This document shows, in pieces, positions 6,321 to 39,360 of a stretch of DNA of 64,000 bases; position 1 is the stretch's first letter, and each line of letters starts with the position of its first letter. The stretch covers positions 1,772 to 65,771 of the forward strand of contig JAZOBD010000047.1 of the NCBI GenBank assembly GCA_045595825.1, written 5' to 3'. The DNA is from Acutalibacteraceae bacterium (GTDB lineage Bacteria > Bacillota > Clostridia > Oscillospirales > Acutalibacteraceae). A program made the position numbers and the translations under genes. The notes under the pieces were generated by a model. It saw only the letters and a list, made by a program, of their open reading frames with translations. It ran no database searches and was not told the origin of the DNA.

Positions 6321-8243
6321 GTGGAATTATTCAGAAAAATATCAGCTGTTTTTCTTGCTGTGTCGCTTTTGGCGGCAATGGCAGGCTCTTCCTTTGTCTC
6401 TGCGGCTGTTGACCCCAGATACGGCAACGAAAAATTCGGCACAAAATCCGCTCAGCTTGTCATTGAATATGATGAGTCTGAAAACACCCCTGCTGACAGC
6501 ACCGATTCTCCTTTGCGCCTTATCGGCAAAACCGTAAACTATGGCTTTGATTTGTCTTTGTACGGTGCCTGTGAATATATCAGATGCACAGACAACCGCT
6601 TTTTAATGCAGTTTGACAACATCAGTGCTTTTGAGGCGGCTTACAGTGCGCTTGATTCAGACCCTGATGTTGTATATGTTGACCGCGACTGTTACGTTGA
6701 ATCTTCGGCAATTTCAACCGTTATTGATGATTATCTTTCGTGGGGCACTACGGCAATCGGTGCCGATTTGTACTCACAGCATGTCGGCCGTGAAGCAGGT
6801 GACGGCGACGGCGTTGTTGTGGCTGTTATTGACTCGGGTGTTGCAGACATTGATTTCCTTGACGGCAGAGTTGTCGGCGGTTACGATTTCGTTGACAATG
6901 ATGCGGATGCCTCTGATGACGTCAACGCAAAAAGTCACGGCACACATATGTCAAGCATCATTGTTGACACTGCGCGCGATGTGCCCGTTTATATAATGCC
7001 CGTCAAGGTTATCGGCGAAAGCGACGGCGCGCTTGTTGACGTTATAAACGGAATTTATTACGCCGTTGACAACGGTGCGGATATTCTCAACATCAGCCTC
7101 GGCTACGATCAGGAGGATTGTGAGGCTTTTCACGACGCACTTGCTTATGCCTATTCAAAAGGTGTTACCTGCTGTGTTTCCGCAGGTAATGACGGCATTG
7201 ACTGTTCAGATTATTGCCCTGCTCACATCGAAAGCGCAATAACGGTTTCTGCCATTGATACAATAAATCTTTTCGGTGCCGGCCACTCAAATTTCGGCGC
7301 TTGTATTGATATTGCAATGCCCGGTATCGCCATTGCGGGATACAACGCACAGGGCAAGAGAATTACGGGCAGCGGCACCTCGATGGCGGCGGCTTTTGCT
7401 TCTGCCTCAGCGGCTCTGATAAAGCTTGCAAACCCCGGTTTCACACCCGATGACATCCGTCAGGCTCTCATTGACTGTGCCAAGGATCTGGGTGCTGAGG
7501 GCTTTGATAATTACTATGGCTACGGTCTGCCTCAGCTTTCGGCGTTGATGCCTGCGGTGGAGGGTATATCCCTTGATGTGACTGAGGTTCACCTTTCTGT
7601 CGGCGAAACCTTTACACCCACGGTTACGTTTATTCCTGCCAATGCAGGCAATCAGAACGTTATCTGGATTCCCGGCAAAAACGACGTTGTTCAGGTTGAC
7701 TCCGACGGAACTATCACAGCCGTTTCCGCAGGCGAAATGACAATGCTTGCAAGAACTGTTGAGGGCGGATTTATCGCAAGGTATTACATCACCGTAACGG
7801 GTGAAAATCCCGTTGCGCTTATCATGGATGATGAGTTCATCGATGAGCCGACAACTGAAGAAAAAACAACGGAAACTACAACCGGGCCGAAGCTTATAAA
7901 AGTTGACCCTGCGGCAAAGGCTGTAAGACTCACCCTTTCTCAGACGAAGCTTGCATACGGCGAAACCGCAAAAGTCAAAATCAGCGGTCTGCCTGCCGGC
8001 TATTATGCCAGATGCGTTTCCTCTGACTCAAGCGTTGCAATAATCAACGGCAACGGCCTTGTTGAGGCTGTCGGAATGGGTAAATCCGTTATAAAGGCAA
8101 CGATTGTTGACCCCGACGGATATGTCTGTGTTGATGAAAATGAAGAGCCGATTGTTGCAAAAGCCACTGTCAGATGTACGCTTACTTTCGGTCAGTTCCT
8201 CAAACAAGTTTTAAGTAAATTGTTTAATCTTAAATTCAAATAA
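6321..8243 (+). CDS. Secreted S8 subtilisin-family serine peptidase with two Ig-like (Big_2) domains
   Basis: Signal peptide; catalytic triad motifs VAVIDSG, HGTHM, SGTSMAA; C-terminal Big_2-like segments; GTG start with ggagg RBS. Confidence 0.9.
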   Translation: MELFRKISAVFLAVSLLAAMAGSSFVSAAVDPRYGNEKFGTKSAQLVIEYDESENTPADSTDSPLRLIGKTVNYGFDLSLYGACEYIRCTDNRFLMQFDNISAFEAAYSALDSDPDVVYVDRDCYVESSAISTVIDDYLSWGTTAIGADLYSQHVGREAGDGDGVVVAVIDSGVADIDFLDGRVVGGYDFVDNDADASDDVNAKSHGTHMSSIIVDTARDVPVYIMPVKVIGESDGALVDVINGIYYAVDNGADILNISLGYDQEDCEAFHDALAYAYSKGVTCCVSAGNDGIDCSDYCPAHIESAITVSAIDTINLFGAGHSNFGACIDIAMPGIAIAGYNAQGKRITGSGTSMAAAFASASAALIKLANPGFTPDDIRQALIDCAKDLGAEGFDNYYGYGLPQLSALMPAVEGISLDVTEVHLSVGETFTPTVTFIPANAGNQNVIWIPGKNDVVQVDSDGTITAVSAGEMTMLARTVEGGFIARYYITVTGENPVALIMDDEFIDEPTTEEKTTETTTGPKLIKVDPAAKAVRLTLSQTKLAYGETAKVKISGLPAGYYARCVSSDSSVAIINGNGLVEAVGMGKSVIKATIVDPDGYVCVDENEEPIVAKATVRCTLTFGQFLKQVLSKLFNLKFK

Positions 8244-8272
8244 AAAATGCACCCGTAGAGGGTGCATTTTTT
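8242..8272. terminator. Bidirectional intrinsic terminator
   Basis: aaaaaatgcaccc-gtaga-gggtgcatttttt between convergent genes. Confidence 0.85.
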
Positions 8273-8273
8273 G

Positions 8274-8711: not shown

Positions 8712-8770
8712 AACAATTCCTCCCGTCAATAAAAGTATTGCCGGAAAACTGTTGTTTATAAGTAAAAATT

Positions 8771-8802
8771 AAAGGCGTAACGAATTCTCGCTACGCCTTT
8801 TT
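8771..8802. terminator. Intrinsic terminator downstream of the acyl-CoA synthetase gene
   Basis: aaaggcgta...tacgccttt imperfect stem flanked by A/T tracts. Confidence 0.6.
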
Positions 8803-8805
8803 GCT

Positions 8806-11127: not shown

Positions 11128-11162
11128 TAAAATCGGTTCCTCCTTCTTTAAAAATTTGTAAA

Positions 11163-11425: not shown

Positions 11426-11445
11426 TTGCTTTTGTTCAATTGTAT

Positions 11446-11474
11446 AGGATAAACTATTTTTTTTGCTTTGTCAA
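11446..11474 (-). promoter_or_regulatory. SigA-type promoter of the T-box leader
   Basis: TTGACA-17 nt-TATCCT on the minus strand just upstream of stem I. Confidence 0.65.
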
Positions 11475-11610: not shown

Positions 11611-13161
11611 ATGAAAATGAAAAAATCCCGCAAAATCCTCGCTCTCCTGCTTTCGCTGATTATGCTTGTCGGTGCGATAAGCGTGTCTGCAAGTGCGGCG
11701 GAAGAAACTCCTCCCGCCAATGTTTTTACCGAAACGGAGCCAAACAACACTCCCGAAGCAGCTGACGAAATAGAACTGCTTACCGAAGTGTCAGGCAATC
11801 TGAATGCCGGTAATGCTGATTGGATTGACGTTGACTGGTATAAAGTCAGCGTTGAGCAGTCCGGCGTTTTGTCGGTTGAGTTTACTCACCCCGTTTTTGA
11901 ATCGCTGCTCAGTTATTATACCGTTGATGTTATCGGTGTTGACGGCGGAAATGAATTTCTGCTTTCAAGTACAATATCTCTTGGGACGGACGGAAAAATC
12001 ACTACCGTCGGCAGTCTTGTTGCTTCGGGTACATATTATGTACGTGTGACGGGCGGAGATGTTGTCAGCGAAGACGGTTATACGCTGACGGTTACGCTCG
12101 GTCAGTCACGTGACGGTGAAACCGAGCCCAACAATACTTTTGCAGAGGCTGATATAATAAGTACGGATTCAGGTGCGGCTTACTTCGGTTCAATCGGCGC
12201 CGCAGACGATATTGATTTGTACGCTTTCAATCTTGCCGCAAAGGGTTATGTTGATATTTCGGTTTCGGACGATTCCGCTGCTGCGGGCAACGCCGAATAT
12301 ACAGTAAGCGTTATGAAATTCGGTTCAGGTGAAGCTGTTGCGCCCGAGACGGTTGCCGTTTTTGTCACCGATTCAGCCAAACCGGGAACAACCTTCCCCA
12401 GGCTCGGTCTTGAAGCAGGCACTTATTTTGTGAAAGTTGAAATCAGCGGCAATTTTGTTGGAAACTCTGCTTACGCTTTAAGCGTGAAAGCTTCTGCTTA
12501 TGCTTTTTATGAAACAGAAGTGAATGACAACTGGCAAACAGCTGACGTTTTCGATGCAACCGTAAACACGGGTGACTCGTACACAGGCACTTTCACAAAT
12601 AATATTTATGCAAATCTGAGCGGCAAAAACGATGCTGACTGGTTTGCCGTTTCACACAATTCTTCGGGAGTAAGCTCCGTTGATGTCATTGTCAGGGTTG
12701 ATGCAGGTGCAAATGCAGACAACTGGAAAGTAGAGCTATATAATTCGGGGCTGCTTTCTCAGCCTGCGGATACTTACGACATTTCGTCTTATGCCGTACC
12801 TTTTGAGAAAAACGTCAAAGGCGGCAGTGCCTTATTCAACACAGACACGGATATAGTGTGCAAGGTTGATACTGCTTCTTATTCGGGCGACAAGCTTGTT
12901 GTCAGGGTTTACTGTGACGGAGAAGAGGTTGATACATCAATGTATACGGTAATCTGTGTTGTCAGTGTCGATAACACCCCTGAAAAGAGCTGGTTTGAAA
13001 ACCTTCGAGATTATTTCAAGGGACTTTCTCAGATTGAATGGCCGTTCCTTTCCGAGCTTATCGGCAAAGTTTTCGAAGATTTCACCTTTGATACGGTGCT
13101 CGGTCTTATCGGTAATGTCGGTTCACAACTTATTAAGTTCCTTTTTAATTTCCTCGGCTGA
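11611..13161 (+). CDS. Secreted protein with three PPC-like (ETEPNN) beta-sandwich repeats and an amphipathic C-terminal tail
   Basis: Signal peptide ending ASA-A; repeats FTETEPNNT, GETEPNNT, YETEVNDN each followed by D.D.(Y/F); no catalytic motif seen. Confidence 0.7.
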   Translation: MKMKKSRKILALLLSLIMLVGAISVSASAAEETPPANVFTETEPNNTPEAADEIELLTEVSGNLNAGNADWIDVDWYKVSVEQSGVLSVEFTHPVFESLLSYYTVDVIGVDGGNEFLLSSTISLGTDGKITTVGSLVASGTYYVRVTGGDVVSEDGYTLTVTLGQSRDGETEPNNTFAEADIISTDSGAAYFGSIGAADDIDLYAFNLAAKGYVDISVSDDSAAAGNAEYTVSVMKFGSGEAVAPETVAVFVTDSAKPGTTFPRLGLEAGTYFVKVEISGNFVGNSAYALSVKASAYAFYETEVNDNWQTADVFDATVNTGDSYTGTFTNNIYANLSGKNDADWFAVSHNSSGVSSVDVIVRVDAGANADNWKVELYNSGLLSQPADTYDISSYAVPFEKNVKGGSALFNTDTDIVCKVDTASYSGDKLVVRVYCDGEEVDTSMYTVICVVSVDNTPEKSWFENLRDYFKGLSQIEWPFLSELIGKVFEDFTFDTVLGLIGNVGSQLIKFLFNFLG

Positions 13162-13301: not shown

Positions 13302-14486
13302 ATGAGTATTGAATTTTGTTCAAATTGCAGTGCCTTGCTTGATGAAAACAACCCCGTTTGTCCCAAGTGCGGCACAAAAAACGTTCTTAAAGATTCAAAG
13401 ACGGCAACATCGGCCGACGTGCTGAATAACTCACCTTTTAATTTTGTTGCAAATGCGGCAAAAGCAGACACTGCCGCAGCGCCTGCTGCCCCTGCAACTC
13501 CCGTTGCTCCTGCGGCGCCTGCCAAGCCTGCGGCACCCGTTGCCCCTTCTCAGCCGAGTGCTTCCGTAGCGCCCGCCAAGCCTGCAAGTGCATCGTCTTC
13601 CGCTTTCTTTGCTTTTTCCGCGCCTGCAAGAAAGCAGGAGCCTGCGCAGAATAGCGGTGCTTCTGTCCCTGCACCCGTAAAACCGCAGACACAGGCACAG
13701 CCAGTCAGGCAACCTGCTCCTGCTGCGTCGGTTAAACCGGTTGCGCCCGTCAATGCTGCTCAGCCGAGTGCCCCTGTTGCACCCGTTAAGCCTGCCGCAC
13801 CCGCGGTGCAGCCTGCCGAAACATCTGCACCCAAGGCAGAAGTAAAGACCGAAAAGCCTGCAAAGGTTAAAAAGCCGAAAAAGGAAAAAATCAAGAAAGA
13901 AAAGACGGAGAAATCCTTTGATATAGGTGCATTTTTCAAAAAGAATATCAAACTCATAGCGATTGTCGGCGGCGTCGCCGTTGCGGTTGCTGTTGCCGTG
14001 ATGATTATTATGAGCGTCGTAAGCAACGCAGGTTATAAGGGTGTCATTAATGACCATTTTTCCGCTTATGCCGATTGCGACGGCAAAAAGATGGTTGATT
14101 CAATGGCGGATTTCTACGTTGAAGACCGCCTTGCTCAGAATAACTGGAGTGAAAAGGACTATGCCGATTACTATGAAAACGGCACACTTAAAGATGTTCA
14201 GCTCCGTGTTGCCGATGTGTTTGGCGGAAAAGCAAAAATAAAATATGAAATCATTGAGGAGAAAGAGGTAACCGAGTACAGGTTCGATAATCTCAATGAG
14301 GATTTCATTGCTTTGTATGACCTTGGTAAAAACGATCTTGATGAAGCCGTCACCGTAACCGTCAAGATAACCGTCGAGGGCGAACTTCGCACCGTTGAGC
14401 GCCGCTACGATATCACTCTTGTCAATGTCAACGGCGATTGGGGTGTCTGGCAGAGCGACTTGAATCAGCTTGCATGGATTGCCTGA
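13302..14486 (+). CDS. Zinc-ribbon, Pro/Ala-rich single-pass membrane protein
   Basis: CSNC...CPKC ribbon, long PAAP-rich linker, Lys-rich patch, one TM helix, extracellular alpha/beta domain. Confidence 0.75.
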   Translation: MSIEFCSNCSALLDENNPVCPKCGTKNVLKDSKTATSADVLNNSPFNFVANAAKADTAAAPAAPATPVAPAAPAKPAAPVAPSQPSASVAPAKPASASSSAFFAFSAPARKQEPAQNSGASVPAPVKPQTQAQPVRQPAPAASVKPVAPVNAAQPSAPVAPVKPAAPAVQPAETSAPKAEVKTEKPAKVKKPKKEKIKKEKTEKSFDIGAFFKKNIKLIAIVGGVAVAVAVAVMIIMSVVSNAGYKGVINDHFSAYADCDGKKMVDSMADFYVEDRLAQNNWSEKDYADYYENGTLKDVQLRVADVFGGKAKIKYEIIEEKEVTEYRFDNLNEDFIALYDLGKNDLDEAVTVTVKITVEGELRTVERRYDITLVNVNGDWGVWQSDLNQLAWIA

Positions 14487-14533
14487 TTATACAGATTACT
14501 TGCGTTGACCACAAATAATTTTGAAGGTTGTTG

Positions 14534-16087
14534 ATGATAATGTTCAAGAAAATTATTGCGTTTTTGCTTGCTGTTTGTCTTGTCTTTTCGGCACTTTTCT
14601 GTGCAGGTGCGGTTGAACCTGAGCAAGAGAAATTTTTCCGCGTAATGGTGCCTGGTGTCAACACGCGTGACATTTTGTATATGCCCGGCACCGATGATGC
14701 TGTCGGTGTTTTTCCGCCCTCCACAGATGCAATCCTGTCTGTTGTCGAGGGTGCTCTTCCCGTACTCGGCAAGTTCGCTTGTACGAGAGATTGGGATGCT
14801 TTTGCCGTTGAAGTTTCGGGGCTTGTAATGCAGTTGTTTGACAAGTTTGCCTGCGATGAAAACGGCAATTCAAAAGAAAATGTCGGCATTGACTGGGAAT
14901 ATCCCGAAGAGGAAATAATACTTGAATCTGACAACGCAACCTTCTACTATGACTGGCGTCTTGACCCTCTTTACGTTGCAGAGCAACTGAGCGATTACAT
15001 TGATTACATTCTTGAAGTCAGGGGAGAAGAGAAAGTTGTTGTTGAGTGCCACAGTATGGGCGGCGTCATAACGCTTTCGTACTTTGCCAATGAGGGCGAA
15101 AAAGCCTATGACAAGGTACATTCCGTTCTGTTTGATTCCACTGCAATTTTCGGCACATCCGTTGCAGGCGAACCGATGAACGGAAAAATCGCCGTTAACG
15201 GAACATCCCTTGCAAATTTTCTTTATGATTCCGTTCTCGGTATGGATGCCGAGGCGCTTCTTCACAGCATTTTTGATGTGATTAACGAGGCAGGCATTTT
15301 TGACGGAGTCGGTGTTGTCGCAAACAATATAGTCGATAAAATTATTGCAACCGTTTATGAAGAATGTGCGATTGATATTTTTGCATCCGTTCCCGGCATC
15401 TGGGCGCTTACTCCCGCTGAAAATTTTGAGGCTGCCAAAAAGCTTTGCTTTGAAGGGGAAAGGGGAGAGAAATACGCAGGTCTTATTGAAAAAATCGACA
15501 ATTACGACCTGAAAGTCCGCCGTCAGGCAGTGACTCTTCTTAAAGAAATTGACAGCCGTATGAATATCGGTGTTTTCTCACGCTACAATTATCAGATTAC
15601 TCCGGTTATCGAAACCTGGAACGTGCAGAGCGACATGGTTATCGACACAAAGTTTACCTCCTTCGGCGCAACCTGTGCACCGCTCGGAGAAACTCTCGGT
15701 GAGGGCTACGCACAGAAAAACACGGACTGCGGTCATAACCATCTGTCAATTGACGGCGTGATTGACGCTTCCACCTGTCTTTTCCCTGAATATACCTGGT
15801 TTATCAAAGATATTCAGCATTCGTTCGGTATGCGTGAAATGGAAGAATTGCGTGACCTGATTTTTAATTCGGAAAAGCAGGTAACCGTTCACGATTATGA
15901 AGAATTTCCGCAGTTTATGAGCTATGATCCCGCCGAAGAAACCTTCTCACCGCTCGGTGTACCTCAGGTTGAAACCAAAAGTCCGTTCATGGCGTGGATT
16001 TCAGGCACAAAAGCATCGGTTTTTGTGAATGTTTATTATCAGTTCTTTAAGCTTATCGCCGATTCCGTTGTTTCGGTGTTTAAGTGA
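14534..16087 (+). CDS. Secreted alpha/beta hydrolase (LCAT/lipase-like)
   Basis: Signal peptide; MVPG oxyanion region, YYDWRL and nucleophile elbow CHSMGG. Confidence 0.7.
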   Translation: MIMFKKIIAFLLAVCLVFSALFCAGAVEPEQEKFFRVMVPGVNTRDILYMPGTDDAVGVFPPSTDAILSVVEGALPVLGKFACTRDWDAFAVEVSGLVMQLFDKFACDENGNSKENVGIDWEYPEEEIILESDNATFYYDWRLDPLYVAEQLSDYIDYILEVRGEEKVVVECHSMGGVITLSYFANEGEKAYDKVHSVLFDSTAIFGTSVAGEPMNGKIAVNGTSLANFLYDSVLGMDAEALLHSIFDVINEAGIFDGVGVVANNIVDKIIATVYEECAIDIFASVPGIWALTPAENFEAAKKLCFEGERGEKYAGLIEKIDNYDLKVRRQAVTLLKEIDSRMNIGVFSRYNYQITPVIETWNVQSDMVIDTKFTSFGATCAPLGETLGEGYAQKNTDCGHNHLSIDGVIDASTCLFPEYTWFIKDIQHSFGMREMEELRDLIFNSEKQVTVHDYEEFPQFMSYDPAEETFSPLGVPQVETKSPFMAWISGTKASVFVNVYYQFFKLIADSVVSVFK

Positions 16088-16116: not shown

Positions 16117-16650
16117 ATGAGCAATATCTGGCACGACATCAGCCCGCGCAGAATTTCCTGCGACGATTTCATCGCCGTTATCGAAATCTCAAAGGGCAGC
16201 AAAAGAAAGTATGAACTTGACAAGGAAACGGGCATGCTTATACTTGACCGTATCCTTTACACTTCCACGCATTATCCTGCAAATTACGGGTTTATTCCGC
16301 GCACCTACGGCGATGACGAAGACCCGCTTGACGTTGTTGTCATTTGCAGTGAAGAGCTTGCGCCTCTTACCCTTGTGCGTTGCTATCCCATCGGCGCAAT
16401 CACAATGAAAGACGGAGGCAAGTTTGACGAAAAAATCATCTGTATTCCGTTCAATGACCCCAACTACAATACCTACGGTGATATTACTGACCTTCCTGCC
16501 CATCTGTTTGATGAAATGAAGCACTTTTTCTCTGTCTACAAAACTCTTGAAGGCAAGGAAACAGTGGTTGATGAGGTGCGCGACCGTCAGGAGGCAACCC
16601 GCATCATTGCACAGGGTATTGACAACTATATTCAGAAATTTTGCCGATAA
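16117..16650 (+). CDS. ppa: Family I inorganic pyrophosphatase
   Basis: YPANYGFIPRTYGDDEDPLDV and DEKI signatures. Confidence 0.93.
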   Translation: MSNIWHDISPRRISCDDFIAVIEISKGSKRKYELDKETGMLILDRILYTSTHYPANYGFIPRTYGDDEDPLDVVVICSEELAPLTLVRCYPIGAITMKDGGKFDEKIICIPFNDPNYNTYGDITDLPAHLFDEMKHFFSVYKTLEGKETVVDEVRDRQEATRIIAQGIDNYIQKFCR

Positions 16651-16654
16651 CGAA

Positions 16655-16685
16655 ACAAAAAGCAGACGCTCAGTCTGCTTTTTGT
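16655..16685 (+). terminator. Intrinsic terminator after ppa
   Basis: acaaaaagcagac-gctca-gtctgctttttgt. Confidence 0.85.
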
Positions 16686-16831
16686 CGTTTGTTGTAGAAT
16701 ATTACCAAAAGTTACCCCGTAATGCAGTTACATTTTTAAACAGCGGCAAGCTCTTGTTTGCTTGACTTGTTAAATAATTATATGATATACTATATGCAGT
16801 ATTTTTATTGCTGCTTAAGGAGGTATGTCTT

Positions 16832-17326
16832 GTGAAAAAAATCGGAATTGTAATGGGCAGCGACAGCGATTTGCCTGTCGTTGAAAAAGCATTCAATACG
16901 CTTGACGAATTCGGTGTACCTTACGAGGTGCATGTTTTCTCTGCGCACAGAACACCTGAGCAGGCAAGGGAATTTTCTGCAACTGCGCGCGCAAACGGAT
17001 TCGGCGCAATTATTGCCGCCGCCGGCAAAGCTGCACACCTTGCAGGTGCCATTGCCGCAAACACCACTCTGCCTGTTATCGGCATCCCTGTAAAATCATC
17101 AACACTTGACGGCATTGATGCGCTTTTGTCAACCGTTCAGATGCCTGCGGGTATTCCCGTTGCCACGGTTGCTATTGACGGCGCTGTCAATGCCGCTTTG
17201 CTTTGTATACAGATTCTTGCCGTTGAGGACAGCGACCTTGCACAAAAGCTTGACGCATCCCGTGCGGCAGCCGCACAGAAAGTTCTTGTAAAAAACGCTG
17301 AAATTTCAGCAAGATTCAATAAATAA
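16832..17326 (+). CDS. purE: N5-CAIR mutase / AIR carboxylase catalytic subunit
   Basis: [23 protein letters not shown] and STVQMP; GTG start after aaggagg. Confidence 0.95.
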
Positions 17327-17342
17327 TCGGGAGGAACAAAAA

Positions 17343-18026
17343 ATGAACAAGCTCGTTTACAAAGGAAAAACAAAGGATGTCTTCGCACTCGAAAACGGCA
17401 ACTATCTTCTTAAATTCAAAGATGACGTTACAGGTGCAAACGGTGTTTTTGACCCCGGCGCAAATACAGTCGGTCTGAGCATTGATGGCGTAGGTAACCT
17501 CAATCTCAGAATGTCAATCTATTTCTTTGAAAAGCTCAAGGAAGCAGGCATCAAAACACATTACGTAAGTGCAAACCTTGATGACACAACAATGGAAGTT
17601 CTTCCTGCAAAGGTATTCGGTAAGGGTCTTGAGGTTATTTGCAGACATAAGGCTGTCGGCAGCTTCATCCGTCGCTACGGCGATTATATCGAAGAAGGCG
17701 CTGACCTTCCCGCTTACGTTGAAATGACTTTCAAAGATGACGACAGAGGCGATCCCCTCGTAACAAAAGAAGGACTTATCGCTCTTAATGTTATGACTGA
17801 CGAGCAGTATGAATCTGTCAAGGCTATGACCCAGGAAATCACACAGATCGTTGCTGACGAGCTTCTTAAAAAGGGTCTTGTCCTTTATGACATCAAGTTT
17901 GAATTCGGTTACAGCGGCGACGAAGTTATTCTCATTGACGAAATCGCTTCCGGCAACATGAGAGCTTACAAAGACGGCAAGTATATCGAGCCTCTTGAGC
18001 TTTCCGAAATTTTCTTCGCTGAATAA
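17343..18026 (+). CDS. purC: SAICAR synthetase
   Basis: [22 protein letters not shown] and DIKFEFG...DEI. Confidence 0.9.
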
Positions 18027-18058
18027 TCATAAACCTGAATCAATCCGGAGGCATGTAT

Positions 18059-19507
18059 ATGTGTGACCTTAACAACAAGCTCCACGAAGAGTGCGGTGTG
18101 TTCGGCATTTTTGTTCCCACACGTCAGGACGTTGCGCACTCTGCTTATTACGGACTTTATGCTCTTCAACACAGGGGACAGGAGAGCTGCGGCATTGTTG
18201 TAAACGATGACGGCGTTTTCCACTCCTTCAAAGATATCGGCCTTGTCAATGATGCAATCACAACCGAAACAATGGAAGAGCTCGGCCCCGGTAACATGGC
18301 AATCGGCCACGTGCGTTACGGTGCGCTTGGCACAGACCCGCGCCTGAGTGCTCAGCCCGTCGTTGTTGAGCACATCAAGGGCAGAATGGCGCTTGCCAAC
18401 AACAGTGCACTTATCAACTACTACGAGCTTCGTGAAGAGCTTGAGCTTGAAGGCTCGATTTTCCACACCACAAGCGATGCGGAAATTTTTACCTACATCA
18501 TTACCAAAGAGCGTCTTACCGCACCCTCAATCGAAGAGGCTGTCAACAGGGCAATGTGCAAAATCAAGGGTGCATATTCATTTGTTGTCATGTCACCGTC
18601 AAAGCTTATTGCCGCAAGGGATGAGCGCGGCTTCAAGCCCCTTTGCTACGGTGTGCTCGATGACGGCGGATACGTTGTCGCTTCCGAAAGCTGTGCGCTT
18701 GATTCAATCGGCGCAACACTTGTGCGTGAGCTTGACCCCGGTGAAATCCTTGTTTTCACAAAGGACGGCGTCAAGAGCATACGCGACCACTGCGACAAGG
18801 CTCCTTCGTCTTTTTGCATTTTTGAATATCTTTATTTTGCACGTCCCGACTCGATAATTGACGGTCTTTCCGTCCACAGCGCAAGACTCCGTGCAGGTGC
18901 ATTCCTTGCGCTCGAACATCCCGTTCAGGCAGATGTCGTAATCGGTGTTCCCGACTCCGGTCTTGATGCCGCAATCGGTTATTCAAGACAGTCAGGCATT
19001 CCTTACGGTCTGGGCTTCATCAAAAACAAATACATCGGCAGAACATTCATTGCGCCCGGTCAGGCTTCTCGTGAAGACAAGGTAAAGATTAAACTTAACC
19101 CCATCAGCGAAACAGTCAAGGGCAAGCGAGTTGTTCTTGTTGATGACTCAATCGTCAGAGGCACAACCTGTGCAAGAATTGTCAAGCTTCTGCGTGATGC
19201 GGGTGCAACCGAGGTTCATATGCGTTCCTCAGCTCCTGCGTTCAAATATGTCTGCCATTACGGCACCGACATCGAATCCGAAAAGGTACTTATCGCAAGA
19301 CAGCATACGCTTGAGGAAATCAAAGAAATCCTCGGCGTAGATTCCATCGGTTTCCTGAGCGTTGAAAACGCACCCAAAATCGCCAACGGCTGTGCACGCA
19401 ATTATTGCCTTGCCTGCTTTAACGGCGAATATCCGACCGAAATCCCCTGCAAAAAACAACAAAGAAAATATGAAAAAAAGATTTCTGAAAGTGAGGCTGC
19501 AATATGA
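18059..19507 (+). CDS. purF: Amidophosphoribosyltransferase (Fe-S type)
   Basis: Propeptide then CGVFG, QHRGQES, VLVDDSIVRGTT and four Fe-S Cys; atypical glutamine site (see findings). Confidence 0.92.
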   Translation: MCDLNNKLHEECGVFGIFVPTRQDVAHSAYYGLYALQHRGQESCGIVVNDDGVFHSFKDIGLVNDAITTETMEELGPGNMAIGHVRYGALGTDPRLSAQPVVVEHIKGRMALANNSALINYYELREELELEGSIFHTTSDAEIFTYIITKERLTAPSIEEAVNRAMCKIKGAYSFVVMSPSKLIAARDERGFKPLCYGVLDDGGYVVASESCALDSIGATLVRELDPGEILVFTKDGVKSIRDHCDKAPSSFCIFEYLYFARPDSIIDGLSVHSARLRAGAFLALEHPVQADVVIGVPDSGLDAAIGYSRQSGIPYGLGFIKNKYIGRTFIAPGQASREDKVKIKLNPISETVKGKRVVLVDDSIVRGTTCARIVKLLRDAGATEVHMRSSAPAFKYVCHYGTDIESEKVLIARQHTLEEIKEILGVDSIGFLSVENAPKIANGCARNYCLACFNGEYPTEIPCKKQQRKYEKKISESEAAI

Positions 19508-21140: not shown

Positions 21141-21160
21141 GAAAGGTAAGGTAAGCAAAA

Positions 21161-21886: not shown

Positions 21887-21900
21887 CGGAGGATTTTAAA

Positions 21901-23085: not shown

Positions 23086-23103
23086 TAAACGGAGGATTGT
23101 TCT

Positions 23104-24363: not shown

Positions 24364-24376
24364 GGAGGAAAAGCTA

Positions 24377-27300: not shown

Positions 27301-28069
27301 CGGTACAAACTGTGAGTTTGATACCGCAAAAGCACTTGAAACAGCAGGCGCAAAGGCTGAAATCATTGTTATCAATAACCTTACCCCCGCAGGTATTGCA
27401 AACAGTGTTGATTACTTTGTAAAACAGATTTCCGAGTCACAGGTTATCTTTATCCCCGGCGGCTTCTCCGGCGGTGACGAGCCCGACGGCTCAGGTAAAT
27501 TCATTACCGCATTCTTCCGCAACGGCACGGTCAAAGAAGCTGTCAATGAGCTTCTTAAAAACCGCGACGGCCTGATGTGCGGCATCTGCAACGGCTTCCA
27601 GGCAATCATCAAGCTCGGTCTTGTTCCTTATGGTGAGATTATTGACACCGATGAAAACTGCCCGACGCTGACCTTCAACACAATCGGACGCCACCAGTCA
27701 CGTATTGTACGCACACGCATCGCTTCCAACAAATCGCCCTGGCTTATGAATACACAGGTCGGCGATATTTATTCAGTGCCCATTTCTCACGGCGAAGGTA
27801 AATTCCTTGCAAGTGAAGATCTTATCAGAAAGCTTGCCGAAAACGGTCAGATTGCGACACAGTATGTTGACCTTGAGGGCAAACCTTCCTCTGATATTCA
27901 TTTCAATCCCAACGACTCCGCTTTTGCGGTTGAAGGCATCACTTCACCCGACGGCAGAGTTTTCGGCAAAATGGGTCACTCGGAAAGAATCGGCAACGGT
28001 CTTTATAAGAACGTTGAGGGTAACTATAATATCGGCTTGTTTGATTCAGCCGTTAAATACTTCAGATAA
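24377..28069 (+). CDS. purL: FGAM synthase, single-chain large type
   Basis: DTYWSDHCRH, KNETHNHP, DFGAGG; glutaminase motifs PGGFSGGD, GICNGFQ and MGHSER. Confidence 0.95.
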   Translation: MVYRVYVEKKQGLANEANSLCNDIKTLLQIEKLESLRLLNRYDVENIDSELFDYSVSTVFSEPQLDNVAYSLGDTSDCTVFAVEYLPGQFDQRADSAAQCIQIISQEERPLVRTARIYMLYGDLTAEDVAAIKKYVINPVESREATLDEFKTLVTEYEIPESVETLDGFISLDADGLAAFVKKYGLAMDCDDIAFCQSYFKKEGREPTITEIRMIDTYWSDHCRHTTFLTTIDSVKFEDELLEKTYNDYLAARKAINRTKPVNLMDVATVCTRYLKANGKLPRIDESEEINACTVKIKVNVEGEEQDWLLLFKNETHNHPTEIEPCGGAATCIGGAIRDPLSGRAYVYGAMRVTGAANPLVPVKDTIKGKLPQRKIVTTAAAGYSSYGNQIGLATGQVDELYHDGYAAKRMEIGAVVGAAPAENVRRECPVDGDIVILLGGRTGRDGCGGATGSSKSHTLDSLESCGAEVQKGNAPEERKLQRLFRNKEASRLIKRCNDFGAGGVSVAIGELADGLEIDLNAVPKKYEGLDGTELAISESQERMAVVVAANDVECFKKLADSENLEATVVAEVKAEPRLRMKWNGKYIVDLSREFLNSNGAEKHIDITPAAPECYKKTVGTDFEKELVALADDLNVCSKRGLSERFDSTIGAGTVMMPFGGKNQLTPSQAMVNKVSVEKKHTDTCSLMAWGYNPFIAEKSPYHSAYLAVVESVSKLIATGADFTDVYLTFQEYFEKPMRDGKRWGKPLAALLGAFKAQMDFEIASIGGKDSMSGTFEDIDVPPTLVSFAVTTDDVKNIVTPEFKAAGNKVVLLKPEYDSNHLPVAESVKANFATVSKLVREGKVLSAYTPGYGGIAEAIMKMCFGNDIGFDFADGFSMDEIFGYSYGSFILELADNTDVGVVLGATTGEKAIKFGGTAVCLDKLLDTYENKLEPIFSCNIEQSHGEIPAFEFKANEWSSPVIKTAQPKVLIPVFPGTNCEFDTAKALETAGAKAEIIVINNLTPAGIANSVDYFVKQISESQVIFIPGGFSGGDEPDGSGKFITAFFRNGTVKEAVNELLKNRDGLMCGICNGFQAIIKLGLVPYGEIIDTDENCPTLTFNTIGRHQSRIVRTRIASNKSPWLMNTQVGDIYSVPISHGEGKFLASEDLIRKLAENGQIATQYVDLEGKPSSDIHFNPNDSAFAVEGITSPDGRVFGKMGHSERIGNGLYKNVEGNYNIGLFDSAVKYFR

Positions 28070-28081
28070 GGAGAGTGTAAA

Positions 28082-29587
28082 ATGGCTTACTATTTTTCAG
28101 AACCGTCAAGAACATTCAGTGAATATCTTCTTGTGCCCGGTTATACATCAGAGCAGTGCATTCCTGCAAACGTAACCCTTAAAACACCGCTTGTAAAGTA
28201 CAGAAAGGGTCAGGAAGAGTCTGCGATCAATCTTAATATCCCCATGGTTTCCGCCATCATGCAGTCTGTTTCCAACGACACAATGGCAATTGCCCTTGCA
28301 CGTGAGGGCGGCATGTCCTTCATCTACGGCTCACAGACTATTGAAGACGAGGCAAAAATGGTTGCCAAGGTAAAGAATTACAAGGCAGGCTTTGTTGTCA
28401 GTGACTCCAACCTTAAACCCGACAGCACACTTGAAGATGTTCTCAATCTTCTCAACGAAAAGGGTCACAACACAATGCCTGTAACCGAAAACGGTCAGCC
28501 CAACGGCAAGCTTCTCGGTATTGTCACGGGCCGTGACTACCGTGTCAGCCGTATGCCTCTTGACCTCAAGGTTACTGAGTTTATGACTCCTCTTGACAAG
28601 CTTATCACAGCACCCGATACAACTCCTCTTAAAGATGCTAACGATATTATCTGGGAAAACAAGCTCAATTCTCTTCCCATTGTTGACAAAGACGGCAACC
28701 TTGTTTATATGGTTTTCCGTAAGGATTACTCACAGCACAAGGAAAATCCGCAGGAGCTTTTGGATGACAACAAGCGTTATATGGTCGGTGCAGGTATCAA
28801 TACCCTCGACTATGAAAGACGTGTTCCCGCCCTTGTTGAGGCAGGCGCAGACGTGCTTTGCATCGACTCGTCAGAGGGGTATACTGTCTGGCAGAAGAAA
28901 ACGCTTGACTTTATCCGTGAAAGATACGGCGACAGCGTAAAGGTCGGCGCAGGTAACGTTGTTGACCGTGACGGCTTTATGTTCCTTGCTGAGGCAGGTG
29001 CAGACTTTATCAAGGTCGGCATCGGCGGCGGCTCAATCTGCATCACCCGTGAGCAGAAGGGCATCGGCAGAGGTCAGGCAACCGCTCTTATTGAGGTTGC
29101 AGCCGCAAGAGACGAATACTTTGAAAAGACAGGCATTTACATTCCCATCTGCTCCGACGGCGGCATTGTTCATGACTATCACATGACACTTGCTCTTGCA
29201 ATGGGTGCTGACTTTATGATGCTCGGCAGATACTTTGCACGCTTTGATGAGAGCCCCACAAACAAGCTCAACATCAACGGCACTTATGTTAAAGAATACT
29301 GGGGTGAAGGCTCCAACCGTGCCCGTAACTGGCAACGTTATGACCTCGGCGGCAAGACAAAGCTTTCATTTGAAGAAGGTGTTGACTCTTATGTCGTTTA
29401 CGCAGGTCCCCTCAGAGATAATGTGGAAAAGAGCCTCTACAAGGTCAAATCAACAATGTGCAACTGCGGCGTGCTTACAATTCCCGAGTTGCAGAAAAAC
29501 GCAAAAATCACCCTTGTTTCCGCAACAAGTATTGTTGAGGGTGGCTACCACGACGTTATGCTCAAAACAACTGCAAATCCCGGTTAA
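28082..29587 (+). CDS. guaB: IMP dehydrogenase with CBS pair
   Basis: [19 protein letters not shown] (catalytic Cys), SDGGI and YWGEGS. Confidence 0.95.
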
Positions 29588-29698: not shown

Positions 29699-32101
29699 TC
29701 AGCCTGCGTAGGGGCTCCATTCTTCGTAAATTTTGCCGTTGTAGGTGATTGTACCTGCAGTGTGTGAGGTTGTTGCTTCATAAAGTGAAACGTAGCCTGC
29801 AAAGTGCTCGTCAACGTCAGCAAAGTAATTTACGTTACCTTCCATACCGGATGTGACGTAAACCTTCTTGACAGAGCGGTTGAGAACGGCATTCATTGCG
29901 GTTACAAACTGAATTCTTGAAACGGTCAGGTCGGGGCAGAAGGTGCCGTCTGAGAAGCCGTGAATCCAGTTGTAATTGAGCGCAGTGTAGATAGACTCTG
30001 CATAATCACTTGCCGTAACGTCTGAATATTTTGAAGCGATGCTGTTGGTGTAGCAGATGCCTGTGAAGTTGGTGATAATCTTGCAAAGCTCGCCTCTGGT
30101 TACGCCGGTGTTGGGTCTGAAATATGTTGCACCGTCAGCGGCATAGGGTGTGCCGTCAAAAATTCCGGCGCCGTAAAGAGTCTTGACTGCGGTGATTTCT
30201 TCGGGTGAATAGTAAGTTGCGCCAAGGTCAGTGTAGGGGATTTCCGTGTTGGCATAGGCTGACTTTGTTGTGTCATCAAGCAGGTTGTAGACGGAAAGTG
30301 CAAGGTCAAGACGGCTTAAATTGTCGTTGGGCTTGAGGTATTCGCCGTTGATGACGTTAAGATATGCAACGTGGTCTGTTTTGAGTGAATATGCGGTGTT
30401 TGCCGTTGATGCAACAACCGTAATTGCGCAGGCTGCGCTGACGTAGCCTGTTGCTGAGGATTTGACCTTTGCCGTGATTGTGCAGGAGCCTGCACCGACG
30501 GGGGTGACAACGCCGTTTGAAACGGTTGCAACATTCCGGTTGTCCGATTCCCAGATAACGCTCTTATCATAAGTGCTTGTCGGGGTGACCGTTGCTTCAA
30601 GCACAAGATTTCGTCCGACTGTGAGTTTTGCTTCGTTGGTATTAAGCTCAATTCCGTTTGCATAAACCGTTGAAACATTTACAGTACAAGTGTCTGAAAC
30701 ACCGCTTGCGGCGGTTGCCGTGATTGTACACTCACCTTCGCCGACACCCGTTACGTAACCGCTTGAAGATACGGTTGCAACAGATTTATCGCTGGAAGTC
30801 CAGGTTACGCTTGTGTTTGTTACACCTGTGGGGGTGAAGATTGTTGAAAGGAGAGAGCCGCTGCCGGTGTTGATGTTGAGGTTATCCTGAACAATGTTGA
30901 TTGCTGTTGCAGGGACGTCAACAAATGAAAGGTTGTGGGTATATTCTGCAATATCCGTGTTGACGGTAAGTGAGGTTGAACTTGAATGCTGGGTGTACTG
31001 TGTGCCGAGGGGGCCGAAGTTTTTGCAGTCAAGAACAACTCTGTCCTCATAAACGTAAATAATGAGTGACTGATAAAGAACGGTTTCGTCAACAAAGCCG
31101 ATAACACTGCTTGACAGTGAACCGCTGTAATAACCCATTGAGCCCATGAATGCGGAAATAAAGCCGGGGTTTGCGGTTGCGGTTGTTGTTGCGTTGCCTG
31201 ACGAGTCAAGATAATACTGTGTTACACGCTGTGCAACCTCTGTTTTGTAGCAGGCGTTGTCCATCTGATGGTCGTGGCCGTAAACGTAAATGAGGTTGGG
31301 GTATTTTGCAAGCTTGCTTTTGAGCAGTGCATCTTCATTTGTAAGACCGTAGTTTGAACGCAATCCCTTTGAGTCGTTGAAGGGAATATGAGCAAGGAAA
31401 ATTACAAGTGCGTTGGGGTCACTGTCGTAAATTTCATCAACCTTGTCTGCGCACCAGTTCATAACCTCTGTGTTATATGTATAGTTGGTGTTGGTGTCAT
31501 AAAGGTGAGAACCTGCGTTCATAACAACGAAATGAATGGGCGTACCGTTGGAGCAGTACTGCTGATAGTGGTAAGCCAGAAGTACGTTGGAAAGGGCACT
31601 TGAAGAAGCAACTGCACCGTAATAAGCATCATCGGGTGTTCCCATGCCCTCGGTTTCGCTGAGCATCATATTGGTGTAATAATCGCCCGAGTTGTAACCG
31701 CTGCCTGCACTTTTACAAAGGTCGTATTCGTGGTTACCTGCAACGTAAAGAACGTTGTACTTGTTGGCAGGGTCACTGAATGCGTTGGGAAGCTTGGCTT
31801 TCAGTTCGTCACGGATGGCTTCCCAGGATTCCTGACTGTAATTGCTTGAGTAGTTACTCGCAATATCGCCGCCGACAAGAACCATATCAAGGTCTTCCGT
31901 AGCACCAAGCTTGTTGATTGTGTCCACAACGTTTGTTCTGAGGTTTGATGTGTTTGTGGCACAGTGAATGTCGGAAATGCAGCCGATTGTGTAAATCGGT
32001 TCGTCAGCCGCAGAAACAACAGGGGCACCGATTGCCAGACAGCAGGCAAGCAGTGTGAACACCATCATTAAAGAAACGGCAGATTTAAAAATCTTTTTCA
32101 T
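29699..32101 (-). CDS. S-layer-anchored calcineurin-like metallophosphoesterase with two Big_2 domains and SLH repeats
   Basis: Signal peptide; SDIH, GGD, GNHE and GHDH motifs; VTWTSSDKSVATV Ig repeats; FRPNTGVTRGE and FCPDLTVSRIQ SLH-like motifs. Confidence 0.85.
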   Translation of the reverse strand: MKKIFKSAVSLMMVFTLLACCLAIGAPVVSAADEPIYTIGCISDIHCATNTSNLRTNVVDTINKLGATEDLDMVLVGGDIASNYSSNYSQESWEAIRDELKAKLPNAFSDPANKYNVLYVAGNHEYDLCKSAGSGYNSGDYYTNMMLSETEGMGTPDDAYYGAVASSSALSNVLLAYHYQQYCSNGTPIHFVVMNAGSHLYDTNTNYTYNTEVMNWCADKVDEIYDSDPNALVIFLAHIPFNDSKGLRSNYGLTNEDALLKSKLAKYPNLIYVYGHDHQMDNACYKTEVAQRVTQYYLDSSGNATTTATANPGFISAFMGSMGYYSGSLSSSVIGFVDETVLYQSLIIYVYEDRVVLDCKNFGPLGTQYTQHSSSTSLTVNTDIAEYTHNLSFVDVPATAINIVQDNLNINTGSGSLLSTIFTPTGVTNTSVTWTSSDKSVATVSSSGYVTGVGEGECTITATAASGVSDTCTVNVSTVYANGIELNTNEAKLTVGRNLVLEATVTPTSTYDKSVIWESDNRNVATVSNGVVTPVGAGSCTITAKVKSSATGYVSAACAITVVASTANTAYSLKTDHVAYLNVINGEYLKPNDNLSRLDLALSVYNLLDDTTKSAYANTEIPYTDLGATYYSPEEITAVKTLYGAGIFDGTPYAADGATYFRPNTGVTRGELCKIITNFTGICYTNSIASKYSDVTASDYAESIYTALNYNWIHGFSDGTFCPDLTVSRIQFVTAMNAVLNRSVKKVYVTSGMEGNVNYFADVDEHFAGYVSLYEATTSHTAGTITYNGKIYEEWSPYAG

Positions 32102-38300: not shown

Positions 38301-39360
38301 TGATCCCTTCGGCGATGATAAAGAGGTTGCTACCGACGCTTACATTGCCGACAACGAGGCATTTACAACAACGCTTGAAATGCGTGATATCCTTATTTCG
38401 CAGGATAACACAGTCCAGTCGGGCACTGACGGCGGCGTTGTTTACATCGACGGCAGCACAACGCAGGAGATCGGTGAGCACACAAATCAGCTTGACAGAC
38501 TCATCGGCAGCGATGACGATTCAAAGCTTGCTCTGCTCAACGCTCTTACCTTTGCAAACGCAGGTCCCAACAATGAGGTTTATGTCGGCCCCGGTCAGAC
38601 AATTGCATTTAAGATTGCGGGTAACAACCTCAACAAGATAACGTCTGTTCAGCTCGGTGCAAAGGCTCCTGAGGGCGCTGCGGCAAATATGGTTGTTTCT
38701 TACATTGCCGTTTCGGGCGAAACAAGAAACACCTACACCCAGACTCTTGCCGTTAACAGAGAGATTGCAACTGCAACCGATATGTATTACAACATCACAC
38801 CTGCTGTTTCAATCGACCGTGACAGCGACAGTTCAGCAACCAAGACAAAGACAATCGTCATCACCAACACAGGCGACGGAATTCTTGCTTTGTCAAACCT
38901 CAAAATTGCAACCGCATCTGCTCTCGGCACATCAACATCCAACTCCGAAACAGACGAAGAGTTTGTAATTGAAGCTGTTCTCAATGCGGCTTCCATGGGA
39001 CTTAACAATTACGGCGAGGCACTTGTTGCTTCTTATCTGCTTACCGTTTCAGATGAAAATGCAACTGCGGGCAGTGTGTTCACTTATACTGTCGGCAATG
39101 AGCCCAATGCCGAAAAACCCGAAAAGCCCGAAAATCCCGATAAGCCCGACAACACGGATAAACCTGGCGCAACCGATAAACCCGTCGATTCAGATGACTC
39201 AGAAACTCCCGAGCCTCCTCAGGAGCCTGAAAAAGCTCCTGAAAACGCACACAACGGTATTCTTAACAAGATTATTGATGCAATTATCGGCGTGTTCAGT
39301 TACATCTGGAATTTCATCAAGCCTTTGGTAACGGGTGCGTTCCAAAAGTTTTCGCTTTGA
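32317..39360 (+). CDS. Very large secreted vWA-domain adhesin-like protein (2347 aa)
   Basis: Signal peptide; repeated GxxYxIvtt modules; vWA MIDAS DFSSS...SGTNY...FLSDG; Pro/Glu/Lys linker; amphipathic tail without LPXTG. Confidence 0.8.
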   Translation: MKKLTKILAVLLSVAVAVCSLPFGAFAADYSQTVSNEGRYGMKDSLGYALTEMVDGHILEETVVTTTETVKDLPGVSMFERKTGSLVDGKNYVIVTTTDVRSLSADGNGSASPVGYAVGVTGTSTKVTTASVTDEWTDNVIVTDDFTYVWKWNAATRTFTNVADSSLYLGMDGSVMSTAAQTAWTVTETANAVNGLNAYTFYGNNGSGDYYMRYQYHSSSGGEVVRVSGTAANFFVFEEVQYPSGSEKAYFRTDDAFVNGEEYMLVTTTASSAGGSTVTGYQRMTGDALVNGTSYIIATTNTSARAMILNGTGIARSGDYINSGSASTLSLDVIDDTMLWTYNNGSFQNVSNPARYLTNSGNNALTTGTSATTWTVSPNGENYRIYRTVSNQARYIQYASNTFSLTTTSTNLHIYEPIVETTVGGEVESSTGYALNISGSTVGVTSSAVTQGWGNDVIVSSDSASAWVYNNGVFTNVSDPSKTLTVGGASTWNGTATKNAVNGSVTGYTLASGSSYLDYEDGSVTTSSEPYYFMAYQEKSYPVAGGTETIVAETENFDIESGENYAILGFANTAPNAQTAHGALTNNMEEAINGVQYYFGYTGSGSNVSTDAFAWDIRITEGARNGITAYSFYDNDEEYNVRYQYNNGSVVVRISGTQCYFFVFEETVENGTTVFKRIDTELTPGKKYIIVTTNNATSSDSTGVTGSGNAICINNGAVSYTSSNVTTNYADTITTWDDSYVFLYTPEGYFASMDGVTYDTALAADTTPTFDSGISRLVDGDQPVDDFTFTKVDDGWYVSYTENGTTYYLNISSTQASFSTTPQVLAIDTAATASTDVPCIRISDASKTNYLAYNGTTYGVSTSATSAETALYPYAEAQFPVGEEYYVEIVYNGAIISQTLRWIANVTAADTRQFEYATNIDTTDANTSVIWSIDEQYDVDGNLITEAEKSIASINDSGFASFTGNEGTIIVKVSVESAIDSTGEISYVATDYIKIIVSAGDIPPLTDTSDHTNFPEYPNEGSVSIDKFISESNNFFSDGLLQLDLEVTGVPKNAGVDVVVVVDFSSSMLKNYVSGDGSTDLSTNNRLISAVNSTNLFIDQVLAANEDGSASNNRVAVVRFSPNGVADPALSTNGSYGSTSDYEDGYVTPMTSAAVNWNNMEHVISGFVGADEKASLKSKVSALLTEGQASGTNYDAGLWYAKQLLEEAYTPERQQFVVFLSDGKPTQYNNRSWESSNNSASQGTSEINLLFYREIGAYKFATKGLTALNDPSEVVGYVEATGDSSEKYYADYGAGPRPHDLSEAIKTMGATLYTIAFDVLETSSGLDDNYYFTAAQAMEILKKMASVDEAGNPLSYNVASTNELVGLLGDIAGAIKQAGTRAYVEDIIGSNFELQYKPVQLRNTNEYFTPEITITNYPLNADGTRDKANATIIESVRFEYDSGSDTYSAYSSILGDDVNILSYTDGVEADGVITASKFTYNFATRKFNWNIGDITSDLIVLSYDIYLTGSVEGEVESGTYDTNQSAILYYYNYLDNLCSLTFPVPQAVWGQAKISYQFYLVNEQGKPVNTKGQVVPFANRVIVVPEQVYATVLLNEQTVTLDAIFLAAGDVLPDGYTIYTKNNIDPGYALYTDSADMGGDVLWSKSETIGDAVVEYRGGSKGIAQMGTFNDLAVAFPVLFSISAYPDIVVADYGLPININVIANDLGVDNAIYGLGTQEAVLPSGSTTFTTSPYTSDEITLTTLRNGNTVTSGKAELYTPSNSNTKMVRYTMATDLDHVETFWYGAGNAVESKYVTSYVKVIPATTVYYEDNFAYGDSSWIEYVGDWTATGTQSPTQNGTQDTDRPGADNRYDDANNNYNYDSSYTDYNTYSYGSAHFATETEENGSNHYVQFCFSGTGFDVISRTNNDTGYVIVWVYDTNGTDSTADDKLASKQVIDTYYSSGDLYQIPVINCYDLPYARYRVKIGVVHSEILADTDEGNYTFYIDAVKVYNPVDPFGDDKEVATDAYIADNEAFTTTLEMRDILISQDNTVQSGTDGGVVYIDGSTTQEIGEHTNQLDRLIGSDDDSKLALLNALTFANAGPNNEVYVGPGQTIAFKIAGNNLNKITSVQLGAKAPEGAAANMVVSYIAVSGETRNTYTQTLAVNREIATATDMYYNITPAVSIDRDSDSSATKTKTIVITNTGDGILALSNLKIATASALGTSTSNSETDEEFVIEAVLNAASMGLNNYGEALVASYLLTVSDENATAGSVFTYTVGNEPNAEKPEKPENPDKPDNTDKPGATDKPVDSDDSETPEPPQEPEKAPENAHNGILNKIIDAIIGVFSYIWNFIKPLVTGAFQKFSL

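Follow-up and report, generated by a model that had tools for sequence, protein, structure and literature searches.

In Escherichia coli, PBP5/DacA is held in the membrane by a C-terminal amphipathic helix, and sortase, exosortase and rhombosortase are precedents for the recognition, cleavage and attachment of C-terminal signals. The window analysed here is a stretch of 64,000 nucleotides from an Acutalibacteraceae bacterium (GenBank assembly GCA_045595825.1, contig JAZOBD010000047.1, positions 1,772 to 65,771 of the forward strand). The Acutalibacteraceae, like their relatives, are Clostridia that abound in gut and rumen and are for the most part uncultured. Four exported proteins encoded in the window, with unrelated cargo domains, end in an amphipathic C-terminal tail. 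Judging from their sequences, these tails are probably non-covalent, in-plane membrane anchors of the PBP5 kind, hugely expanded in the Acutalibacteraceae-labelled lineage.

The tails share with PBP5/DacA the export by a signal peptide, an amphipathic helix of ~18–20 residues at the extreme C-terminus, the lack of a transmembrane segment and of a basic tail, and aromatic endings (HHWFG in DacA, LFGxWF in the family of the vWA protein). The PBP anchor is bound to one enzyme family, whereas the tails described here occur in each genome on dozens of enzymes and adhesins that are unrelated to one another, fall into many subfamilies (including multi-helix and Cys/His-flanked versions), end proteins of up to 2347 residues, and belong to a monoderm, in which the cargo must cross the wall. 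In-plane membrane (IPM) anchors of monotopic proteins have been described (Sapay et al. 2006, AmphipaSeeK, PMC1564421; also PMC2909392 on PBP5 and in-plane anchors), and pestivirus Erns has a C-terminal amphipathic anchor (PMC3937272). In these cases a helix lies flat in one leaflet and retains a soluble ectodomain reversibly, as is predicted for the tails, but they concern individual proteins, and none is described as a genome-wide modular display device of gut Firmicutes. The sortase/LPXTG, SLH, dockerin and transmembrane-plus-basic endings are also found at the extreme C-terminus after a linker, apparently in the same role, and replace the tail in homologues; unlike them, the tails have no LPXTG motif, SLH or dockerin fold, spanning segment or basic cluster, and their attachment would be non-covalent and lipid-based. 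In the literature searched no description of such tails was found, and only the work on PBP5 and on in-plane anchors was relevant. Given the PBP5/DacA precedent, in-plane anchoring by the tails would be a new use and not a new principle.

Amphipathic tails in the window and in the genome

The initial annotation had described amphipathic C-terminal tails on four secreted proteins: an S8 protease, a PPC-repeat protein, an LCAT-like hydrolase and a vWA adhesin. Their coordinates and signal peptides were confirmed. All four tails are located at the extreme C-termini of the open reading frames (ORFs), and the N-termini show n, h and c regions with an AxA-like site (heuristic signal-peptide call). 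The cargo domains were confirmed with Pfam and NCBIfam, those of the PPC and vWA proteins lying just below the curated cut-offs. The hydrophobic moment at 100 degrees (µH) was compared with that of 5000 shuffles of each tail's own residues, giving p values of 0.047 (S8), 0.028 (last PPC helix), 0.007 (hydrolase) and 0.012 (vWA), and 0/5000 for the four combined. The µH values of the four tails are 0.58–0.67, compared to 0.64 for the E. coli PBP5/DacA anchor (DacA was read from the K-12 genome). The Wimley-White interfacial energies of the best 18-mers, calculated before the gain from helix folding, are -2.1 (S8), -2.3 (hydrolase), -3.6 (PPC) and -4.9 kcal/mol (vWA), with -5.5 kcal/mol for DacA. 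Lys or Asp is present inside the helix in three of the four tails, which is incompatible with membrane spanning, and the last PPC helix has a single Lys.

In the AlphaFold2 (AF2) model of the hydrolase, for which an alignment was the input, the core shows pLDDT values above 90, residues 485–489 and 492–495 are below 50, and the helix at 494–516 is at ~70–76. The model of the PPC protein has a beta-rich body followed by helices at residues 461–472, 478–487 and 493–515, with pLDDT of ~42–51 per 10-residue block after residue 460. Both models fit a helix tethered outside the fold. The PPC tail, originally taken for a single C-terminal helix, is a three-helix module of ~56 residues.

As initially noted, the four tails show no LPXTG, SLH, dockerin or transmembrane segment with a basic end (Pfam, NCBIfam and sequence inspection). 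The combination of an LPXTG-like motif, a transmembrane segment and a basic cluster is absent from all four proteins, as are the SLH domain (PF00395), any PEP-CTERM-like motif and any match to the NCBIfam CTERM models. Dockerin (PF00404) was not found on the tailed proteins tested and is present in distant homologues. The T9SS domain (TIGR04183/PF18962) gave just an internal, sub-threshold match (PPC protein residues 131–155, 17.2 bits against a cut-off of 23). The Peptidase S11 domain (SxxK, SxN and KTG motifs) is not among the four cargo domains (S8, PPC, alpha/beta hydrolase and vWA). On tail-bearing proteins across the genome no Pfam model touches any tail tested, and with no Pfam or NCBIfam model on any of them, domain-based annotation leaves the tails unlabelled. 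Neither exosortase (PF09721) nor Omp85 was found in the genome; given the lack of Omp85, the cell has no membrane other than the cytoplasmic one. The genome encodes two sortases, about three LPXTG-like substrates, about four transmembrane-plus-basic tails and one SLH protein, and with so few of these the amphipathic tail is by far the commonest candidate anchor.

The genome (2.19 Mb, 67 contigs, 1813 genes from a crude caller) was divided into exported and cytoplasmic proteins by a home-made signal-peptide and transmembrane heuristic. A loose rule, by which the last 20 residues had to be hydrophobic and include three or more aromatics, gives tails in 48/235 exported and 40/962 cytoplasmic proteins (odds ratio (OR) 5.9, p 3e-14). 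A strict detector required a 14-residue window within the last 30 residues, ending at most 12 residues from the C-terminus, with µH ≥ 0.5, hydrophobicity (H) ≥ 0.6 and at least two aromatics; it picked out 27/235 exported proteins and 18/962 cytoplasmic ones (OR 6.8, p 1e-9), and 43/4480 (~1%) of internal windows of exported proteins. A hydrophobic-moment scan of the exported proteins had been proposed in the initial annotation, with a lack of enrichment named as the contrary outcome; what was found is a 6–7-fold enrichment. Wimley-White energies of -4 kcal/mol or lower are shown by 11.1% of exported and 1.2% of cytoplasmic proteins. The tails and lipid modification are mutually exclusive, with 0/42 lipoproteins tailed compared to 34/232 other signal-peptide proteins (p 0.004), about one in seven; lipoproteins were called by a strict lipobox rule, a looser one having yielded false cases of a lipoprotein with a tail.

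The tail-bearing proteins have a median length of 537 residues, against 354. Their cargo is unrelated and includes BspA-type LRR, Listeria-Bacteroides repeats, Big_2, CHAP, metallophosphatases, GH92, a pectate-lyase-like protein, papain C1 with a lectin, and several alpha/beta hydrolases. The genome's own DD-carboxypeptidase (G000:C51:3799-4998, with SVTKIM, SAND and KTGTT) ends in KKLNFGTVFVRMLRSLDENL, a classical PBP5-type tail. Several other tails consist of 20–25 nearly uncharged residues with H ≥ 1.0 (e.g. GILQTLIDVFMMFINLILALLGTV and FFDFIASLFASFFQIIIQLLAALTA).

The tails are also restricted in lineage. With the same ORF caller and detector applied to ~400 kb of each comparison genome, they were found in 29/265 exported proteins of the own genome, 6/55 of a same-genus genome (G532), 2/24 of another genus of the same family (G110), 1/38 in the same order (G107), 0/36 in the same class (G066) and 0/30 in the same phylum (G037). 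One further genome (G007, 73% G+C) was left out, as the ORF caller gave 4 "secreted" proteins. The outgroups G107, G066 and G037 pooled give 1/104, from which the own genome (p 6e-4) and G532 (p 0.007, Fisher) both differ. The single outgroup match, one match in G110 and one in the own genome are orthologous DD-carboxypeptidases (SxxK, SxN and KTG) and serve as a positive control; thus, the detector finds the PBP5-type anchor everywhere, and the expansion is seen only in the own lineage. In the flanks of 80 relatives' hydrolase loci, tails are present on 5/48 exported and 3/139 cytoplasmic proteins. Homologous loci come mostly from Acutalibacteraceae bacterium, Oscillospiraceae or Clostridia metagenome-assembled genomes (MAGs) of gut and rumen.

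Tail subfamilies and the C-terminal slot in homologues

The four tails form one physico-chemical class with several unrelated sequence subfamilies, and not one signal. The shared tail of the initial annotation stands in this physico-chemical sense, while no common sequence motif was found and profile hidden Markov models (HMMs) of the tails do not link the four. Neither a 10-tail profile nor a five-round iteration from one subfamily (A, below) reached beyond close relatives, which shows that the four do not belong to a single sequence family.

Among S8 relatives two tail subfamilies were distinguished, A (...SGFFQKLISFFKNLFGINRTVIQ) and B (...YAWWQWIIRILLLGFLWY). Their best tail-overlapping 20-column windows have mean pairwise identities of 0.83 (A) and 0.87 (B), against 0.58 and 0.52 overall; in subfamily A this window shares first rank within the S8 protein, and in subfamily B it ranks first. 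Subfamily A (SGFFQKLISFFKNLFG) is a near position-by-position match to the DacA anchor, with the pattern FFxK[IL]Ixx[FYI][FI]Kx[LM]F. Nothing meaningful was obtained when the subfamily A tail was searched by sequence against the PDB. With 20 first-look candidates scored per genome, the Ig-plus-helix module of subfamily A was found in 15/301 genomes of the family, a patchy distribution, and at convincing scores in the own genome alone among 201 of the order. The same-genus genome has at least 20 matches, many of which lie where genes for giant surface proteins are clustered. A module of ~65 residues, comprising a small beta domain and a GFFxK[IL]IxFFKxLF helix, ends BspA-LRR and other giant proteins (G000:C46:47251-49236, C46:56773-60393, G532:C5:54731-91587 and G532:C24:24425-44765), and eight tail-bearing genes lie within ~40 kb in G532.

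Two exported proteins (G000:C20:1753-3753 and G000:C46:52507-55851) and the S8 relative P0149 end in a Cys/His-clamped helix, C.H.CHQDGF.GFLWKI..FF.KLFG.NPVCECGK.H[WY], perhaps a form of the tail that is stabilised by metal or by disulphides. A 62-residue ORF (G000:C36:41198-41386) with the subfamily-A-like helix GFFFKIVLFFSKLFGQN is located ~1.1 kb from the end of contig C36; it was called separately, directly after ORF 39942-41204, and may therefore be a gene fragment.

In homologues of all four proteins the slot of the tail is occupied by a transmembrane-plus-basic ending, SLH, dockerin, a T9SS domain, or nothing, and in the hydrolase and vWA families also by LPXTG. In the hydrolase family 125/139 homologues (33–48% identity) have an amphipathic tail with a sharp peak of the moment at 100 degrees; its sequence varies freely, and 57% of the tails are individually significant for amphipathicity. 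The other 14/139 end 12–20 residues past the conserved YPQF motif, just short of the tail start, and one homologue (P0109) has a transmembrane segment and KKK in place of the tail. The 12 paralogues in the own genome, at least seven of them tailed, differ mainly in the C-terminal ending (tail, sortase signal or none); that at C67:13808-15445 ends in IPDTG, a transmembrane segment and RKKRK, a sortase signal. Between two close orthologues of the hydrolase, identity is 95% in the body and 68% in the tail, and the moment is unchanged. This lipase-like family, with its 12 members in a 2.2-Mb genome, is missing from 60/60 further genomes taken from across the class.

In the case of S8, the syntenic orthologue from an Acutalibacteraceae-labelled MAG is 79% identical, and its tail TFGQLLRQIFSGLFNIRLK, which differs by conservative changes, keeps a µH of 0.62. 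More distant S8 relatives have transmembrane-plus-basic, SLH, dockerin, CWB or T9SS modules in the tail slot. The PPC three-helix module is also present in P0243, P0245, P0248 and P0250 and in an own paralogue (G000:C43:36035-37573), and other PPC relatives end in dockerin, transmembrane-plus-basic, T9SS or SLH. For the vWA protein, 1304 representatives match the last 599 residues; among the 150 inspected, at least 52 have a Pro/Glu/Thr-rich linker followed by an amphipathic helix, often closing with LFGxWF, about eight have LPXTG or transmembrane-plus-basic endings, and by eye about five end in an SLH-like and about five in a dockerin-like way.

The tailed proteins and their neighbours in the window

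The coordinates of the tailed proteins and of a contrast case are collected in Table 1. The linker before the vWA tail, noted initially as Pro-rich, was confirmed and is a candidate wall-spanning segment. The nucleophile-elbow region of the hydrolase matches Bacillus lipase A and related lipases.

Table 1. Tailed proteins, their tails and an SLH-anchored contrast case in the window
Feature	Position	Strand	Evidence
S8 subtilase, exported, signal peptide and two Big_2 domains, 640 aa	6321..8243	+	Peptidase_S8 1.3e-39, Big_2 2.8e-13 (Pfam)
S8 tail TFGQFLKQVLSKLFNLKFK, cationic amphipathic helix (+4), cannot span the membrane	8184..8240	+	µH 0.61, shuffle p 0.047
PPC-like beta-repeat protein, exported, 521 aa	11596..13161	+	PPC sub-threshold (Pfam); AF2 body beta-rich
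PPC tail module, ~56 aa, three amphipathic helices SWFENLRDYFKGL / PFLSELIGKVFEDF / TVLGLIGNVGSQLIKFLFNFLG, conserved I[DE]W turn	12988..13158	+	each helix shuffle p 0.005–0.028
Alpha/beta hydrolase, lipase-like, exported, 519 aa, one of 12 genome paralogues	14528..16087	+	Pfam; nucleophile-elbow match
Hydrolase tail VFVNVYYQFFKLIADSVVSVFK, amphipathic helix after a ~20-aa flexible linker	16019..16084	+	µH 0.62, p 0.007
Giant vWA-containing adhesin-like protein, exported, 2347 aa	32317..39360	+	VWA_2 and VWA just under Pfam cut-offs
vWA-protein linker NEPNAEKPEKPENPDKPDNTDKPGATDKPVDSDDSETPEPPQEPEKAPENAHN, 53 aa, Pro/Glu/Asp/Lys-rich, directly before the tail	39097..39255	+	
vWA tail GILNKIIDAIIGVFSYIWNFIKPLVTGAFQKFSL, aromatic amphipathic helix and short end piece	39256..39357	+	µH 0.67, p 0.012
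Contrast case: metallophosphatase with Big_2 and SLH, no amphipathic tail	29699..32101	-	SLH 1e-12

The metallophosphatase was rightly set apart in the initial annotation as carrying a different, SLH-type anchor: SLH matches in the whole genome occur only in its frame, its best µH is 0.32–0.40, and its interfacial energy is +1.2 kcal/mol. The idea that it and a tailed metallophosphatase are paralogues with swapped anchors was rejected, as they show no significant similarity.

The genes between the tail genes encode an acyl-CoA synthetase, a zinc-ribbon protein, a pyrophosphatase and a purine operon. The region 16117-29587 (+) comprises the inorganic pyrophosphatase, the complete purine biosynthesis operon (purE, purC, purF, purM, purN, IMP cyclohydrolase, purH-like, purD and a 1230-residue ORF of FGAM-synthase size) and a 501-residue ORF. 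Since these housekeeping genes separate the tail genes, the four do not form one operon. The syntenic relative keeps the S8 protease, acyl-CoA synthetase, PPC protein, zinc-ribbon protein, hydrolase and pyrophosphatase. The zinc-ribbon protein (13302-14486, +, 394 residues) is encoded between two of the tail genes and has a zinc ribbon at its N-terminus as its sole domain. Overall it is 82% identical to its counterpart in the syntenic relative, but over the last 25 residues the identity is 100%.

Proposed in-plane anchoring and its alternatives

If the tails are in-plane anchors, then after Sec export and cleavage of the signal peptide the C-terminal helix (three helices in the PPC protein) would partition into the outer leaflet of the cytoplasmic membrane, lying in its plane rather than spanning it, with Phe, Trp, Leu and Ile facing the lipid and Lys, Asn, Gln and Ser at the level of the head groups. 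A flexible, often Pro/Glu/Thr-rich linker would allow the enzyme or adhesin to extend into the wall or across it, and the cargo would be retained and displayed on the cell, yet be releasable. Such an anchor would have spread by copying, in each genome, to dozens of exported proteins that are otherwise unrelated. Two roles, a lineage-specific anchor or a sorting signal, had been left side by side in the initial annotation; the anchor is supported by the enrichment, the lineage restriction, the exclusivity with lipoproteins and the occupation of the anchor slot, and the sorting and processing side found no such support.

Several observations weigh against in-plane anchoring. By interfacial energy, the S8 and hydrolase tails are clearly less lipophilic than the DacA anchor. 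The mean net charge of the tails is weakly positive (+0.4, range -4 to +5), and the PPC module is acidic, a poor fit to an anionic bacterial membrane. The most hydrophobic tails of the genome could span the membrane instead. Subfamilies A and B are as conserved as the catalytic-site windows, beyond the usual demand of lipid binding, which leaves room for a specific partner or processing. The gene and signal-peptide calls were also made with crude heuristics of our own, and the outgroup samples are small.

The conservation of the tails bears on two related ideas. In the wider one, which we consider rather unlikely, the tails would serve as address labels in a surface-display system, as yet undescribed, of the Acutalibacteraceae and their relatives among the gut Clostridia, and would be read by specific membrane partners or enzymes; the conserved GFFQKLISFFKNLFG..., WWQWIIRILLLGFLWY, ...LFGxWF and Cys/His-clamped helix would be recognised, and adhesins and enzymes sorted, clustered or released accordingly. 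The narrower one, a sorting signal that a lineage-specific enzyme or transporter recognises, cleaves and/or uses for covalent attachment of the protein to the wall or to lipid, is unlikely. It would account for the top or tied-top conservation of the tail windows in subfamilies A and B, for the recurring LFGxWF end of the vWA-family tails and for the Cys/His-flanked variant. However, no motif, and no cleavage motif, is common to the subfamilies, and HMM iteration stays narrow; the tripartite architecture with a transmembrane segment and basic end is absent, and so is exosortase from the genome, while both sortases have LPXTG-like substrates of their own. No conserved enzyme gene lies beside the tail genes in the window or in the same-genus clusters, so that the sorting signal with a processing enzyme suggested initially was not borne out, and the tails of close orthologues drift in sequence while keeping the moment.

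Docking to protein instead of lipid, in which the tails would bind a surface receptor or scaffold in a cohesin-dockerin-like manner or self-associate, is doubtful. The high conservation of some subfamilies, the dockerins that fill the same slot in relatives and the neutral or acidic character of some tails agree with it, but ~30–50 very diverse tails in one genome are united by no single profile, no candidate receptor was found, and the Phe/Trp-rich faces and the match to the DacA sequence pattern point to lipid; the exclusivity with lipoproteins is also what a membrane anchor predicts. The nearly uncharged tails of 20–25 residues, together with the single Lys of the last PPC helix, suggest a mixed class whose more hydrophobic members would be short, true transmembrane stop-transfer anchors of type I topology without a basic tail. 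This is quite improbable, given the Lys or Asp in three of the four named helices, the moment peak at 100 degrees and the lack of a positive-inside tail. Finally, many globular proteins end in amphipathic helices, and 18/962 cytoplasmic proteins pass the detector, so the tails might be ordinary terminal helices packing on their own domains, with the enrichment as a compositional by-product and no common function. Against this, which we regard as very improbable, stand the 6–13-fold enrichment, the lineage restriction and the exclusivity with lipoproteins, as well as the modularity of the tails, which follow disordered or PET-rich linkers and are cleanly lost or swapped for known anchors in homologues.

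In general, the tails are best read as a known way of anchoring that in gut Clostridia has become a portable ending for surface display and has expanded massively. The conserved subfamilies would merit family models of their own. If the tails are anchors, they would provide a tag for surface display in Firmicutes that is very small and genetically portable. In such genomes, some 15% of the exported proteins other than lipoproteins, giant adhesins included, would then be bound to the cell and not free, which would change how secretomes, attachment to host and fibre, and cross-feeding are read. The solution of PBP5, long seen as a peculiarity of one enzyme family, could in that case become a general anchoring strategy.

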